Notes under the pieces: generated by a model
Told to the model about the DNA's origin: nothing
Databases searched by the model: none
The model's input: the letters and a program-made list of their open reading frames with translations, nothing else
In this document: in pieces, positions 6,685 through 36,020 of the stretch
Position numbering within the stretch: the first letter of the stretch is position 1
How the letters are laid out: each line of letters opens with the position of its first letter
Origin: a virus
Virus genome (UHGV): UHGV-0112358
Reading direction: 5' to 3' (one strand)
Length of the DNA: 41,688 bases
Position numbers and translations under genes: made by a program

Positions 6685-7020
6685 TCAAATAAGTGGTTTG
6701 CTGCCTAATTTCATTTTTTGGCGACCAACACAAGTCACCCCCATTTCACTGCGTGGCTTGCGGTAGTAAATACGGTTCTGTTTACGCTCGACTTCTTCTG
6801 CCTTCTTGCAGCGAAGGCTTCCGAGTGATGCTGCTTTTTCAGAAAGGCTTAAACGCTTTCTTGGGGCTTCCTGAACAGGTTCCTCACTGTCTGTGCCGAA
6901 GATCGAATCGATGATGTTGCATATAGCATCACGCTCGATAGCCAGCTTTCTGCGCCGCTCATGACGGCGAGTTTTGGCATTTCCTGCAAATGTTGATTTC
7001 CCGTACACGATTACCGTCAT
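6685..7020 (-). CDS. N: N-like transcription antiterminator
   Basis: Arg-rich motif GNAKTRRHERRRKLAIERD (P22 gp24-like) and C-terminus ...GVTCVGRQKMKLGSKPLI (lambda N-like); ATG 7020 with SD GAGGA. Confidence 0.8.
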   Translation of the reverse strand: MTVIVYGKSTFAGNAKTRRHERRRKLAIERDAICNIIDSIFGTDSEEPVQEAPRKRLSLSEKAASLGSLRCKKAEEVERKQNRIYYRKPRSEMGVTCVGRQKMKLGSKPLI

Positions 7021-7173: not shown

Positions 7174-7212
7174 CTGCCAATCTGTTCCGTTTGGCGTCCT
7201 GCTGATGGCTAA

Positions 7213-7243
7213 ATAGTACGATGTGTACTTTATTGAGTCAATA
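7213..7243 (-). promoter_or_regulatory. pL promoter with OL operator dyad
   Basis: Minus strand -35 TTGACT (7241..7236), 17-nt spacer, -10 TACTAT (7218..7213); dyad AGTACGATGTGTACT (7215-7229) in spacer. Confidence 0.4.
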
Positions 7244-7304
7244 CAAAATGTTCTAAATGCGGTTAGTTTTTTATAACACTTTGTATTTTATTGATTTATA
7301 TTTT

Positions 7305-7334
7305 GGAAAAAGAAAACCCGACGCTAAGGTCGGG
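7305..7334 (-). terminator. rho-independent terminator downstream of cI
   Basis: Minus strand CCCGAC-cttagc-GTCGGG followed by TTTTCTTTTT. Confidence 0.5.
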
Positions 7335-7366
7335 TTATTGTTGTGTGTTTTAGAGTGGTGAGGCTG

Positions 7367-8026
7367 TTAACTAAATGTCTCTTCAGGCCACTGGCTGGCG
7401 ATAACTTTCCCTACTACGGAACAGCTATCATTGCATGGGATCATTGGATATTGCGGGTTTAGTGGTTGTAGGAACACCTGACCGCTATCCCTGATCAGTT
7501 TCTTGAAGGTAAACTCGTCACCACCAAGTCTGGCTATGCAGAAATCACCTGGCTCAACAGCCTGCTCAGGGTCAACGAGAATTAACATCCCGTCAGGAAA
7601 GCTTGGCTTGGATCCTGTTGGTGCGGTCATGGAATTACCTTCAACTTCAAGCCAAAACGCACAATCACTGGCTTTTTTGGTTGTGCTGACCCATCTCTCC
7701 GCATCGCCTTTGGTAAAGGTTCTAAGCTCAGGCGAGAACATCCCGGCCTGAACATGAGAAAAAACAGGGTACTCATATTGTTTTTTAACGGGGGCAGATG
7801 AGTATTCGCCAACAGGTGAAAATGTACCGTCGTGGTTGAATGAGACGTTATCAATACCAAGGTATTTAAACACCACACCAATCTCGTCAAGAGATGGATG
7901 ACGAGATCCGCGCAACCAGTGACCAATTCCACCCTGCGTCATACCAAGCTCTTCAGCTAACTTCTCTTGAGTTATGCCGAGCTCTTTCATTCTGGATCTA
8001 GCCAGTTCATACCATTTCATTTTCAT
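7367..8026 (-). CDS. cI: CI-type prophage repressor (HTH N-terminus, lambda-like S24 C-terminal domain)
   Basis: C-terminal half near-identical to recalled lambda CI ([15 protein letters not shown]...GNSM...ASQWPEETF); N-terminal HTH differs; start MKMKW at 8026, track ORF extends to 8101. Confidence 0.9.
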
Positions 8027-8137
8027 ACCCTTATTATTACGCTCTGTACTAAAACCATCCATGCACAAGATGTATTTTTTGTTTGCATTCCAAAAGTACA
8101 TATCGTATTATTGTTTCATGGTTACTATGGAGGGCAT
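8027..8137. promoter_or_regulatory. OR region: pR promoter and candidate operators
   Basis: pR -35 TTGCAT (8083-8088), 17-nt spacer, -10 TATTAT (8106-8111); operator-like dyads ATTACGCTCTGTACT (8036-8050) and AGTACATATCGTATT (8095-8109). Confidence 0.45.
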
Positions 8138-8353
8138 ATGAGCAACCTACGAAAATATCGAGAGTCACTGAATATCTCTCAAACAACACTTGCTAAGGCG
8201 GTTGGATGCACACAGGGAGCTATCGGACATTGGGAATCTGGTCGTCGCTTCCCAGACCTTAAAACATGCCGTGCTCTTGTTGCGTGCCTAAACAAGTTAG
8301 GCGCAAAAGTCAGTCTTGATGACGTGTTCCCACCGGAACACAAAGCCGCTTAA
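8138..8353 (+). CDS. cro: Cro-like HTH repressor
   Basis: 71-aa HTH protein (ISQTTLAKAVGCTQGAIGHWESG) divergent from cI; SD GGAGGG; track ORF starts upstream at 7967. Confidence 0.75.
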   Translation: MSNLRKYRESLNISQTTLAKAVGCTQGAIGHWESGRRFPDLKTCRALVACLNKLGAKVSLDDVFPPEHKAA

Positions 8354-8462: not shown

Positions 8463-8759
8463 ATGGAACAAACAAGTTACAGCAAACTATCACAGCGCGA
8501 CGTTGATCGCGCTGAAACAGATTTACTCATCAACCTGTCAACGCTTACACAGCGCGGTCTGGCAAAGATGATTGGCTGTCATGAATCGAAGATAAGCAGA
8601 ACGGACTGGAGATTTATTGCTTCGGTCTTGTGTGCTTTCGGAATGGCATCAGACATCAGTCCGATTAGCAGGGCTTTTAAGTATGCGCTTGATGGAATCA
8701 CAAAGAAAAAATCCCCGGTGGCCGCCGGGGACTCTAAGCAAATTGATATGCAATTCTGA
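8463..8759 (+). CDS. cII: CII-like transcriptional activator
   Basis: HTH core and C-terminus ...KKKSPVAAGDSKQIDMQF resembling recalled lambda CII (...RSEQIQMEF). Confidence 0.7.
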   Translation: MEQTSYSKLSQRDVDRAETDLLINLSTLTQRGLAKMIGCHESKISRTDWRFIASVLCAFGMASDISPISRAFKYALDGITKKKSPVAAGDSKQIDMQF

Positions 8760-8791: not shown

Positions 8792-9637
8792 ATGACAAAT
8801 ACAGCAAAAATACTCAACTTCGGCAGAGGTAACTTTGCCGAACAGGAGCTAAGAGTGGCTGATATCGATGATGGTTACACCAGATTCGCTAACGAGCTGC
8901 TGGAAGCTATCGCAAGTGCCGATTTAACCGCTCGCCAGTTGAAAGTTATGCTGGCCTACGTCCGGAAAACATATGGATTCAATAAGAAAACAGATCGAAT
9001 AGCCGATGAGCAAATTGCTCAGTTAACAGGACTGTCAAGGCAGAATGTTAACAAGGCTAAAAAAGAACTGATTTCAATGAATTGCCTGTTTATGGATGGA
9101 AATAAAATCGGTGTAAACAGGGAGGTATCTGCGTGGCAATTCAGCAAGTGTCTCCAAGTTAGCAACTTTGTCTCGAAGTTAGAGACAAAAAATGTCTCCA
9201 AATTAGAGACACTCAATGTCTCGAAGTTAGAGACACACAAAAGACATTCTTTAAAGACAAAAGAAAATATTAATAAACCCCCTATATCCCCCAAAAAAAT
9301 TTCTCAGAAGTTCGACCCGCTAGAAACAGAGTTGCCTGATTGGTTATCGGCAGAAACATGGTTGTCGTGGGTTACCTATCGCAAGGAGATAGGTAAGTCG
9401 ATCAAGTCTAAGCAAAGCGTCACTCAGGCTATCAACGTTCTAAGCAGAAGTCTGGAGAAGGGATATACACCTGAAGAAATTATAAACCAGAGCATCGCCA
9501 GTGGTTGGCAGGGGATTTTTGAACCCAAGACTCCAAAGGGGAAATCTCAACCGAGGCCGCAGCAGCGAGCTATGCAGGAAAACTTTGCCGCCAAAGATTA
9601 CGGGCAAACTGAAATGCCTTCATGGGCGCAGGAGTGA
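8792..9637 (+). CDS. O: replication initiator O (lambda-O-like N-terminal domain)
   Basis: MTNTAKILNFGRGNFA... matches recalled lambda O N-terminus; iterons inside the gene; C-terminal domain differs. Confidence 0.85.
   Translation: MTNTAKILNFGRGNFAEQELRVADIDDGYTRFANELLEAIASADLTARQLKVMLAYVRKTYGFNKKTDRIADEQIAQLTGLSRQNVNKAKKELISMNCLFMDGNKIGVNREVSAWQFSKCLQVSNFVSKLETKNVSKLETLNVSKLETHKRHSLKTKENINKPPISPKKISQKFDPLETELPDWLSAETWLSWVTYRKEIGKSIKSKQSVTQAINVLSRSLEKGYTPEEIINQSIASGWQGIFEPKTPKGKSQPRPQQRAMQENFAAKDYGQTEMPSWAQE
9149..9235 (+). repeat. origin iterons (ori) inside O
   Basis: TGTCTCGAAGTTAGAGACA at 9169, 9193, 9217 (24-bp period) plus degenerate copy at 9149; each palindromic TGTCTC/GAGACA; followed by A/T-rich stretch 9236-9300. 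Confidence 0.8.
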
Positions 9638-25856: not shown

Positions 25857-26288
25857 ATGGGCGTCGTAATATTTGACCCCTCCGCATTTAAGCTACGCTA
25901 TCCTGAATTCTCATCTGTCGACGACGCACTTCTTCAGCAGTATTTCACGCAAGCAACCATTTATCTCGATAACACAGACTCAGGTCGTGTGTCGGATTTG
26001 GCTGTACGCTCGATGCTGCTGAATATGCTGGTTGCCCATATCGTCTGTTTGTATTCAGGAGCGAATGGGCAGTCTCCATCCGGATTGGTTGGAAGAATCG
26101 ACAGTGCTTCAGAGGGTTCGGTTAGCGTTCATGCCGATATGCCAGGGGGAACAGCAAATTCAGCATGGTACATGCAAACAAAGTACGGGGCTGATTACTG
26201 GAATGCTACGGCGCCGTTTCGCACCTTCCAGTATATAAGCGGGCATTCTCCATCAAATTACCCGAATGGGTATTACCGGAGGTACTGA
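25857..26288 (+). CDS. putative head-tail connector protein
   Basis: 143-aa ORF with SD in head-completion block. Confidence 0.5.
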
Positions 26289-26734
26289 TGGATAAGGTGA
26301 TGGATGCGCTGGATGAGGTTGAAAAGCAATTTTCCAACATTCAGCTAAAGGTTGGCTTCCTTGAGGGGGCTACTTACGGCGGTGTAATCCCGGTCCCCAT
26401 GGTTGCCGCTACCAACGAGTTTGGGAATCCGGCTCATAATCAGCCTCCTCGACCTTTTTTTAGAAATGCAATCGCAGAGCATGAAGAAGAGTGGAAAGAG
26501 CAGACTGCTTTGCTAATTGAGCGTGGCGATGACATTGAAGAAGTATTTTCAATGCTGGGAACTATTATCGCCGCTGATATACAGCAGTCGATTCGCTCCC
26601 TTGATTCTCCGCCACTTTCACCAGTTACCATCGCAAGAAAGGGATTTGATAATCCGCTGATTGATACCAAAAACATGCTGGACAGCGTCAGCTATGAGGT
26701 GAGCGAAATTGAATCTCAGACAGATAGCCAATAA
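26288..26734 (+). CDS. putative head completion protein
   Basis: 148-aa ORF, SD GGAGGT, overlapping start. Confidence 0.5.
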   Translation: MDKVMDALDEVEKQFSNIQLKVGFLEGATYGGVIPVPMVAATNEFGNPAHNQPPRPFFRNAIAEHEEEWKEQTALLIERGDDIEEVFSMLGTIIAADIQQSIRSLDSPPLSPVTIARKGFDNPLIDTKNMLDSVSYEVSEIESQTDSQ

Positions 26735-35207: not shown

Positions 35208-35291
35208 TGACGCATCTGGTGGTGAAAAAAAACCGCCAGTGTGCAGCTGGCGGCCTATGTCACACCCTTACTACCACATAAGGAATGCCTA

Positions 35292-36020
35292 ATGACTTTT
35301 AAGAATGTAGCAAACATCGGATCCGTTGTCACGGATAAAACCATTGATAGCCAGTACCTGTTAGAGATGGTCAATCATGCTCGTAGACAGTGCGGGGAAA
35401 AAGAAGTCCGCAATAACGACTTTATTGCACGCATTAAGGATGAACTTGAAGGTGAGCACTACGAAATTTTCGTAGTTCAAAAATCAAACAAGACAACTTC
35501 TGAAAAAGTTGTTATGTCAATTAAGCAAGCCCTTCGAGTGGCTGCTCGTGAATCTAAAGCTGTTCGCCGCTCACTTGTAGACCAACTTGAAAGTATGCAA
35601 GAAGCGCACATTAAAAGCGGTAAATCGTCTAGTGGACTTGTTGAGTATCGCCAGGCGCGAACATTGAAAATGACGGTTGAAGCTGTTACCAATCTGTTCG
35701 ATTTGATGCCAAATCTTGCGCCGGAAGCAAAGCAGACTGCGGCAGCAAGCATAATCAACCCGATCGTTGGTTTTAATGCAATACCTCTTCCAGCAATAGA
35801 AGAGCATTACTACTCAGCAGGGGAGGTTGCAGAGCAGCTTGGAGTAACGGCCAACAAGATTGGTCGCATTGCTAACGCAAACAACCTCAAAACTGAGCAG
35901 TACGGGAAGTTCTTCCTGGATAAATCTGCGCATTCCAGCAAACAGGTGGAAGCATTCCGCTACAATGCGGAAGGTGTTAAAGCACTACAACACCTGGTTC
36001 ATGGGAGTAATGTTGCATAA
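35292..36020 (+). CDS. hypothetical DNA-binding protein (possible antirepressor-like)
   Basis: ATG 35292 with SD AAGGA; HTH-like segment near C-terminus; track ORF starts 35241. Confidence 0.45.
   Translation: MTFKNVANIGSVVTDKTIDSQYLLEMVNHARRQCGEKEVRNNDFIARIKDELEGEHYEIFVVQKSNKTTSEKVVMSIKQALRVAARESKAVRRSLVDQLESMQEAHIKSGKSSSGLVEYRQARTLKMTVEAVTNLFDLMPNLAPEAKQTAAASIINPIVGFNAIPLPAIEEHYYSAGEVAEQLGVTANKIGRIANANNLKTEQYGKFFLDKSAHSSKQVEAFRYNAEGVKALQHLVHGSNVA

Follow-up and report, generated by a model that had tools for sequence, protein, structure and literature searches.

Six candidate CI/Cro operators in the lambdoid immunity region of virus genome UHGV-0112358 and their counterparts in the VT2-Sakai immunity group

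The question

The virus genome UHGV-0112358 was analyzed as one stretch of 41,688 nucleotides, called the window in the following. Around positions 7213-8137 it carries a lambdoid immunity region, and the question raised by this region is which sequences are recognized there by the repressor CI and by Cro, and whether they define a known immunity type. A preliminary description had proposed the dyad AGTAC-N5-GTACT as the operator consensus at the left operator (OL) and the right operator (OR), with one copy in the spacer of the promoter pL and related copies at pR and at the cI start, and had pointed to a second palindrome over the -35 of pL. We find six 17-bp sites in a lambda-like layout, OL1-3 at pL and OR1-3 between the divergent cI and cro genes, and consider it highly likely that all six are operators for CI and Cro. 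The dyads are very probably part of a standard lambdoid switch with the specificity of VT2-Sakai, which is also that of Stx2 phage II and of phages 1717, 2851 and Nil2 (Stx, Shiga toxin).

The dyad in the window

The three dyads and the palindrome are all present at the positions given in the preliminary description, and a promoter scan agrees with its placement of them. The pattern AGTAC-N5-GTACT, i.e. AGTACNNNNNGTACT, was searched across the window allowing at most one mismatch. This gave five matches in 41,688 bp, compared to 0.41 expected from 100 dinucleotide-preserving shuffles, none of which reached five. Three of the five matches fall within 0.9 kb, each on a promoter: AGTACGATGTGTACT at 7215-7229, occupying the pL spacer and 4 bp of the -10; ATTACGCTCTGTACT at 8036-8050, 10 bp from the cI ATG (8026); and AGTACATATCGTATT at 8095-8109, occupying the pR spacer and most of its -10. 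The two remaining matches are in the late region, one (26272-26286) at the junction of the open reading frames 25857..26288 and 26288..26734 and the other (35899-35913) within the open reading frame 35241..36020. They were set aside as probably due to chance, two such matches being unremarkable given the expected number.

A looser pattern gives a different result. With up to two mismatches 15 matches are found against 9 expected, which is not a significant enrichment, and the bare core TAC-N5-GTA is found 6 times against 4 expected and is not enriched. The signal thus resides in the full dyad, and the loose pattern alone cannot define sites. For this reason we relied on the count with at most one mismatch, on a score matrix with each site left out in turn, and on comparative data.

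The six sites and their promoters

The six sites share the consensus tA(G/A)TAC-N5-GTA(C/T)Tn, in which A5, C6, G12, T13 and T16 are invariant and A2 is found in five of the six. They reach 12.2-19.3 bits in a symmetrised score matrix, against 9.7 for the highest-scoring other position of the window. When each site was omitted from the matrix and ranked again among the 41,672 positions, five of the six were still in the top 6, and OR2 came out as number 17. The operator set of the preliminary description was therefore half complete: its three dyads are real and correspond to OL1, OR3 and OR1, and it had missed OL2, OL3 and OR2.

The promoter pL (7213..7241, minus strand) was found by a consensus scan and has the -35 TTGACT (7241-7236), a 17-bp spacer and the -10 TACTAT (7218-7213). 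OL1 (7214..7230, TAGTACGATGTGTACTT) lies over the -10 and spacer; it is the best dyad in the window, an exact match with the top matrix score of 19.3 bits and rank 1 when left out. OL2 (7239..7255, CAATACAAAATGTTCTA) is a two-mismatch match which overlaps the pL -35 by 3 bp, and OL3 (7272..7288, TATAACACTTTGTATTT) forms an inverted repeat with it. Both rank 5 when left out, and each has two or three mismatches to the consensus. It should be noted that OL2 and OL3 with their flanks (7240-7257 and 7270-7287) make up an 18-nt inverted repeat, 89% complementary with 12 nt between the arms, which could fold into a hairpin immediately upstream of pL when present as RNA or single-stranded DNA.

The same scan located pR (8082..8111, plus strand) with the -35 TTTGCA (8082-8087), an 18-bp spacer and the -10 TATTAT (8106-8111). 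OR1 (8094..8110, AAGTACATATCGTATTA), a one-mismatch match, lies over the spacer and -10, scores 18.3 bits and ranks 2 when left out. OL1 and OR1 are in the same register on their two promoters and read AGTACACATCGTACTAT and AGTACATATCGTATTAT in promoter orientation. OR2 (8061..8077, ATGCACAAGATGTATTT), 4 bp upstream of the pR -35, is the weakest site with 12.2 bits. OR3 (8035..8051, TATTACGCTCTGTACTA), another one-mismatch match, ends 8 bp from the cI ATG and covers the -10 and spacer of a putative pRM (8034..8062, minus strand). This promoter is weak and was read from the sequence: the -35 would be ATGGAT (8062-8057), overlapping OR2 by 2 bp as in lambda, and the -10 TAATAA (8039-8034). Measured from centre to centre, the spacings are 25 bp for OL1-OL2, 33 bp for OL2-OL3, 33 bp for OR1-OR2 and 26 bp for OR2-OR3.

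A rival explanation is that the dyads are chance occurrences in A+T-rich promoter DNA, where TAC and GTA resemble parts of a -10, and that other sequences of these intergenic regions are the true operators. OR1 and OL1 each have a right half that also serves as the -10 hexamer, and promoter constraint alone could conserve it; the missing enrichment of the loose pattern and of the bare core fits this explanation as well. The strong enrichment at one mismatch or less does not, and OR3, OR2, OL2 and OL3 are off the -10 of pR and pL and nevertheless keep their half-sites. The comparative data below bear on the same point.

The operator set annotated for VT2-Sakai

The GenBank entries AP000422 (VT2-Sakai) and AP005154 (Stx2 phage II) contain six features labelled 'putative operator' together with putative pL, pR and pRM. 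The six sites of the window align one-to-one with these, with 0-3 substitutions each and with the OR3 core identical. The annotated counterparts are TAGTACGATATGTACTT for OL1, CAATACAATTTGTTCTA for OL2, TACAACGCTTTGTATTT for OL3, TATTACGCTCTGTACTG for OR3, ATGCACAATGTGTATTT for OR2 and AAGTACATATTGTATTT for OR1. The promoters agree too: pL and pR coincide with the 'putative major leftward promoter' and the 'putative major rightward promoter' of VT2-Sakai, and pRM, the function of which is inferred, is at most 1 bp from the feature that VT2-Sakai and Stx2 phage II carry as 'putative maintenance promoter for cI'.

Cro of the window is 100% identical to Cro of VT2-Sakai, and the N-terminal domain of CI has three differences to the VT2-Sakai group (SD to DE and I to V), all outside the helix-turn-helix, which is identical. 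From the identical Cro, the identical helix-turn-helix of CI and the homologous operators it follows that the window probably has the immunity specificity of VT2-Sakai. The cI-cro-cII segment is 92-94% identical to the Stx phages Nil2, 2851, 1717, Stx2 phage II and VT2-Sakai. The non-Stx podovirus vB_EcoP-720R6 is closer still, with 98% identity over window positions 7194-8160 and an identical CI.

The motif is consequently not new, the six operators of this immunity group being already predicted and annotated. According to PMC4587872, its publication as a prediction goes back to the original VT2-Sakai paper and to Fattah et al. (2000), the latter being cited there as the source of the Sakai operator prediction. 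Yin et al. (2015; PMC4587872, Table S5) list these 17-mers, described as the 'same as operator sequences in E. coli O157:H7 Sakai', and Sedhom et al. (PMC9803871, PMC10742460) also took the 17-mers as the VT2-Sakai operator set. In Table S5 of PMC4587872 the OR and OL labels are swapped relative to AP000422 and to the gene order, so that the sites adjacent to cro are named OL. Smith et al. (2012; PMC3430580) described this CI variant as resembling lambda C-terminally, its N-terminus being unique.

This immunity region is common: of 5,426 complete E. coli genomes, 776 (about 14%) contain at least 80% of window positions 7190-8140, and O157:H7 Stx2 prophages are among the carriers. The assignment to the VT2-Sakai type predicts the phages that this prophage will exclude and the prophages with which its repressor can cross-talk. 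Nothing here is new biology; the finding is correct and ordinary. The label 'putative' has been attached to the operators for 25 years.

Conservation in close relatives

Viral contigs were scanned with the CI N-terminal domain, which gave 208 confirmed loci; 80 were kept, all with a 100% identical domain. Together with the phage loci this amounts to about 85 loci with 29 OR variants and 37 OL variants. Variation is found in 4 of 60 half-site columns (positions 2-6 and 12-16), in 9 of 30 central columns (positions 7-11) and in 43 of 115 non-coding columns outside the sites. Fisher's test gives p = 5e-6 for half-sites against outside columns and p = 0.008 for half-sites against centres, values which describe a footprint and not a number of independent events, as close relatives are not independent samples. 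The 15-bp core of OR3 is unchanged in all 29 OR variants. At OL a single column among the 30 half-site columns is variable, and the OL2 half-sites are essentially invariant.

Two side observations may be added. The T-run between OR2 and the pR -35 (8075-8081) varies in length: among 87 loci it is T5 in 3, T6 in 74, T7 in 8 and T8 in 2, which shifts the phasing of OR1 and OR2 by up to 3 bp. Two contigs, JAEZIN010000021.1 (L088, a metagenome-assembled genome labelled Bacillota) and JAJXBQ010000280.1 (L089, a metagenome-assembled genome labelled Segatella copri), carry a cI of the E. coli type with a 97% identical N-terminal domain; the OR region is identical in L088 and of the Sakai type in L089. 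Both are probably mis-binned contigs of enterobacterial prophages.

Distant relatives and the recognition helix

A scan of one genome per species gave 15 loci with CI N-terminal domains 43-100% identical to that of the window. Eleven are outside Escherichia, and the relatives from ten other genera (Providencia, Proteus, Moellerella, Ignatzschineria, Yokenella, Scandinavium, Kosakonia, Superficieibacter, Buttiauxella and Silvania) have domains which are 43-55% identical. In 15 of 15 loci the spacer between cI and cro contains exactly three AC-N5-GT dyads, which are offset from the cI start by about 20, 46 and 80, and the dyad equivalent to OR2 has the same offset from cI in every one. Downstream of cI a triplet spaced 23-26 bp and 28-34 bp is found in 10 of the 12 diverged relatives scanned; no such triplet was seen in L086, and the contig of L094 stops 70 bp after cI. 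Salmonella phage 101962B_sal5, with a CI N-terminal domain of 55% identity, has equivalent sites. The layout of the sites has been retained although the surrounding DNA is unrelated.

The half-sites fall into two groups which follow the recognition helix. The E. coli group has ..TQGGIGHW in CI and ..TQGAIGHW in Cro, and its half-site is tA(G/A)TAC with A2 in 32 and G3 in 18 of 36 half-sites. In the other group CI has ..(S/T)KGAV(G/S/N)HW and Cro T(K/R/T/N)G..HY, and the half-site is nnATAC with A2 in 17, G3 in none and A3 in 54 of 66. Positions 2 and 3 of the half-site hence covary with the first residue of the recognition helix, Gln or Lys in CI; Cro in the group with Lys in CI has Lys, Arg, Thr or Asn at this position. 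In the complex of lambda repressor with its operator Gln44 contacts the adenine at position 2 (PDB 1LMB). Gln29, which opens helix 3 in the window CI, aligns with Gln44, in agreement with A2 being conserved only in the group with Gln. Concrete hypotheses for specificity-swap experiments follow from the constant spacing and from the way in which positions 2-3 change together with Gln or Lys.

These comparisons make the chance explanation introduced above very improbable. Centres and spacers vary and half-sites do not, the layout of three dyads recurs at 43-55% CI identity amid unrelated sequence in other genera, and the bases of the half-sites covary with the recognition helix.

A simpler switch than that of lambda could also be imagined, in which only OL1, OR1 and OR3 are functional and OL2, OL3 and OR2 are look-alikes. 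The low score and leave-one-out rank of OR2 and the mismatches in OL2 and OL3 would fit, and a smaller number of OL sites has been reported for phage 933W (PMC4587872). In the family, however, invariance is as high for the OL2, OL3 and OR2 half-sites as for those of the strong sites, and dyads are found at the same offsets in all distant relatives at OR and in most at OL. By analogy with lambda, OR2 is placed exactly where a site activating pRM is expected. Weak middle operators which depend on cooperativity are normal in lambdoid phages. We therefore regard a switch with three functional sites as improbable.

Some points weigh against taking the six sites as operators. OR2 is a weak match, as seen from its rank of 17, and would need either cooperativity or a relaxed definition of a site. 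OR1 and OR2 are 33 bp apart, the corresponding distance in lambda being 24 bp, and lambda-style cooperativity between adjacent pairs can therefore not simply be assumed. The close relatives are not independent of each other, as stated with the Fisher values, and the invariance of A5, C6, G12 and T13 in the distant relatives is partly built in, since the pattern AC-N5-GT was used to locate the sites. The operator features in GenBank are themselves only labelled 'putative'. A literature search found no binding experiment with cognate CI or Cro for this group, though Fattah et al. (2000) or Serra-Moreno et al. (2008) may contain some, and in the one gel-shift study that turned up, lambda CI was used, at micromolar concentrations (PMC10742460).

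On balance the reading of the six sites as CI/Cro operators at OL and OR, as the preliminary description had suggested for its three dyads, is supported on four counts: promoter geometry, positional homology with the annotated operators, conservation of half-sites and the layout in other genera.

The second palindrome at pL

The second palindrome, TATTGAGTCAATA at 7231..7243, is present and does overlap the pL -35, as the preliminary description had stated; as an element it is not conserved. The right arm consists of the -35 and the beginning of OL2, and variable spacer makes up the left arm. Among 82 related loci it is perfect in 23, whereas 48 have TATCGAGTCAATA, and the Sakai type is CACTTGGTCAATA. 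As a perfect 6+1+6 palindrome it could be taken for a separate operator for a second regulator, for example Cro alone, a host factor or one linked to an antirepressor, and with at most two mismatches it has 6 matches in the window against 1.4 expected, two of the six being the site itself on both strands. Yet one pair is broken in the commonest allele and 2 of 6 pairs are left in the Sakai type, with the right arm unchanged throughout, and there is nothing comparable at OR. With the left arm not conserved, an independent operator was rejected, and a second regulator acting here seems hardly credible.

Genes of the immunity region

The region is a textbook lambdoid immunity module with N, cI, cro, cII and an O-like gene. 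It has divergent cI and cro genes with a short spacer holding pR, pRM and three related dyads; a second triplet of sites (7214-7288) lies over and upstream of pL, which drives an N-type antiterminator gene; and all sites share one consensus and exceed chance. The N-type gene (6685..7020, minus strand; Pfam N_peptide 1e-25) is transcribed from pL. The cI gene (7367..8026, minus strand, with an alternative start at 8020) encodes an N-terminal HTH_3 domain (Pfam, 8e-11) and a C-terminal Peptidase_S24 domain (9e-29), and CI, of 219 or 217 amino acids, contains a VQAGMF cleavage region. The cro gene (8138..8353, plus strand), driven by pR, codes for 71 amino acids with an HTH_3 domain (Pfam, 4e-12), and the recognition helices of the two proteins match, TQGAIGHW in Cro and TQGGIGHW in CI. 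They are followed by cII (8463-8759, plus strand), identified as CII by Pfam, and by the O-like replication gene starting at 8792.

The cI start has been annotated in three different ways in public records. Two in-frame ATGs, at 8026 and 8020 (MKMKWYE), are kept even in distant genera. The ATG at 8026 is 7-8 nt downstream of the pRM -10, and a transcript from pRM would therefore be leaderless, which this upstream ATG would fit. Longer transcripts, from pRE, could use AAGGG at 8028-8032 as ribosome-binding site to start at the ATG at 8020.

On the other side of cI, between its stop and OL3, a terminator scan found on both strands a G+C-rich hairpin (7315..7336) whose stem measures 8 bp; it is probably the terminator of the cI transcript. 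OL3 is only about 80 bp past the cI stop (7289-7366), compared to about 1.5 kb with two open reading frames in VT2-Sakai and 56 bp to 2 kb in relatives. This interval is the slot for accessory genes of the lambda rexAB type, empty in the window. Just downstream of the pL -10, at about 7180-7200, there is a mosaic junction: the common sequence GTCCTGCTGATGGCTAAAT continues leftward into unrelated sequences, ATCTGTTCCGTTTGGC... or TCATGGTGGTCAGTGCG..., and the N modules thus differ among members of the family.

Spacing of the sites and a possible mode of action

The sites, their excess over chance, their place on the promoters, their homology to annotated operators, their selective conservation and the covariation with the recognition helix are what the analysis shows; from these and by analogy with lambda we infer a scheme of binding, order of occupancy, activation of pRM, cooperativity and looping. 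Dimers of CI in the prophage would bind the six sites, and Cro, with its nearly identical recognition helix, would bind the same sites after induction. CI at OL1 and OR1 would cover the -10 and spacer, block RNA polymerase at pL and pR and so silence N and cro; at pL, OL2 in addition overlaps the -35. At OR2, centred at about -42/-43 relative to pRM, CI may activate this promoter through an acidic patch in helix 2, as lambda CI does. OR3, over the pRM -10 and spacer, would shut off cI at high CI concentrations or upon binding of Cro. The lambda-like S24 C-terminal domain would provide dimerization, pairwise cooperativity and looping between OL and OR over about 0.88 kb, as well as the RecA-stimulated self-cleavage at the conserved VQAG/MF site.

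The pairing of the sites deserves a comment. In loci L090-L101 together with the window, the spacings across genera are 26-27 bp for OR3-OR2, 32-34 bp for OR2-OR1, 23-26 bp for OL1-OL2 and 28-34 bp for OL2-OL3. The close pair at OR is thus OR2-OR3, and the pR -35 lies between OR1 and OR2, unlike in lambda in spite of a C-terminal domain that is nearly that of lambda. The spacing is conserved from E. coli to Proteus and Providencia, and one could propose that the switch uses a pairing logic different from that of lambda, a proposal we find rather doubtful. In such a switch OR1 and OR2 may cooperate over three helical turns on one face of the DNA, or OR2 may pair with OR3, giving a tighter negative autoregulation by CI; the phasing might be adjusted through the T5-T8 run that separates OR2 from the pR -35. 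If this were true, a very common immunity type of E. coli would be a natural test of the tolerance of lambda-CI cooperativity to spacing.

Comparison with known systems

With lambda the window shares tripartite operators of 17-bp dyads at two divergent early promoters, and over the C-terminal part of cI the two share 94% DNA identity. The N-terminal domain is another matter: when compared to solved structures it gives a weak match to lambda repressor (3bdn, E = 6e-8) and otherwise generic helix-turn-helix proteins, and this search found no close template with DNA. The domain begins near lambda residue 16, and hence is without the N-terminal arm, which fits the unconstrained central 5 bp of the sites. 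It retains the residues that align with Gln33, Gln44, Glu34 and Asp38, the latter two being the positive-control patch of lambda and corresponding to the acidic Glu19 and Glu23. The half-site is tAGTAC in the window and TATCAC in lambda, with A2, A5 and C6 in common, and the recognition helices are QGGIGHW and QSGVGAL, respectively; lambda Ser45 is Gly in the window CI, and the half-site has T instead of C at position 4. Cro of the window, an HTH_3 protein, is a paralogue of the CI N-terminal domain and does not have the fold of lambda Cro. The spacings at OR are about 24 and 23 bp in lambda, compared to 33 and 26 bp in the window, where those at OL are 25 and 33 bp.

Phages 434 and P22 resemble the window in having a repressor N-terminal domain and a Cro which are homologous helix-turn-helix proteins with matching helices and one shared set of operators, the centres of which are not conserved. 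Their operators are ACAA-N6-TTGT in 434 and ATTTAAG..CTTAAAT in P22, unrelated to those of the window, and the similarity of the N-terminal domains is marginal (E = 0.3-0.6). The preliminary description was thus right that the operators differ from those of lambda, 434 and P22 owing to a heterologous CI N-terminal domain, which has only a weak homologue in lambda and a different recognition helix.

The phages 933W and BAA2326, studied by the Koudelka and Friedman laboratories, have, like the window type, Stx-associated lambdoid immunity regions with OR1-3; their CI belongs to another clade and their operator sequences are different. For 933W, which has two OL sites, experimental footprints of the operators exist (PMC5977221; PMC4587872); footprint data of this kind were not found for the Sakai type in the literature search.

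The nearest systems are VT2-Sakai and Stx2 phage II, in which the six sites recur in unchanged order and are placed alike with respect to pL, pR, pRM, cI and cro. The window differs from VT2-Sakai by small substitutions in the sites, mostly in the central 5 bp and at the edges, by a distance between OL and OR of about 0.88 kb instead of about 2.3 kb, and by an N gene to the left of pL which is a different mosaic module. Phages 1717, 2851 and Nil2 and the non-Stx podovirus vB_EcoP-720R6 are of the same immunity type.

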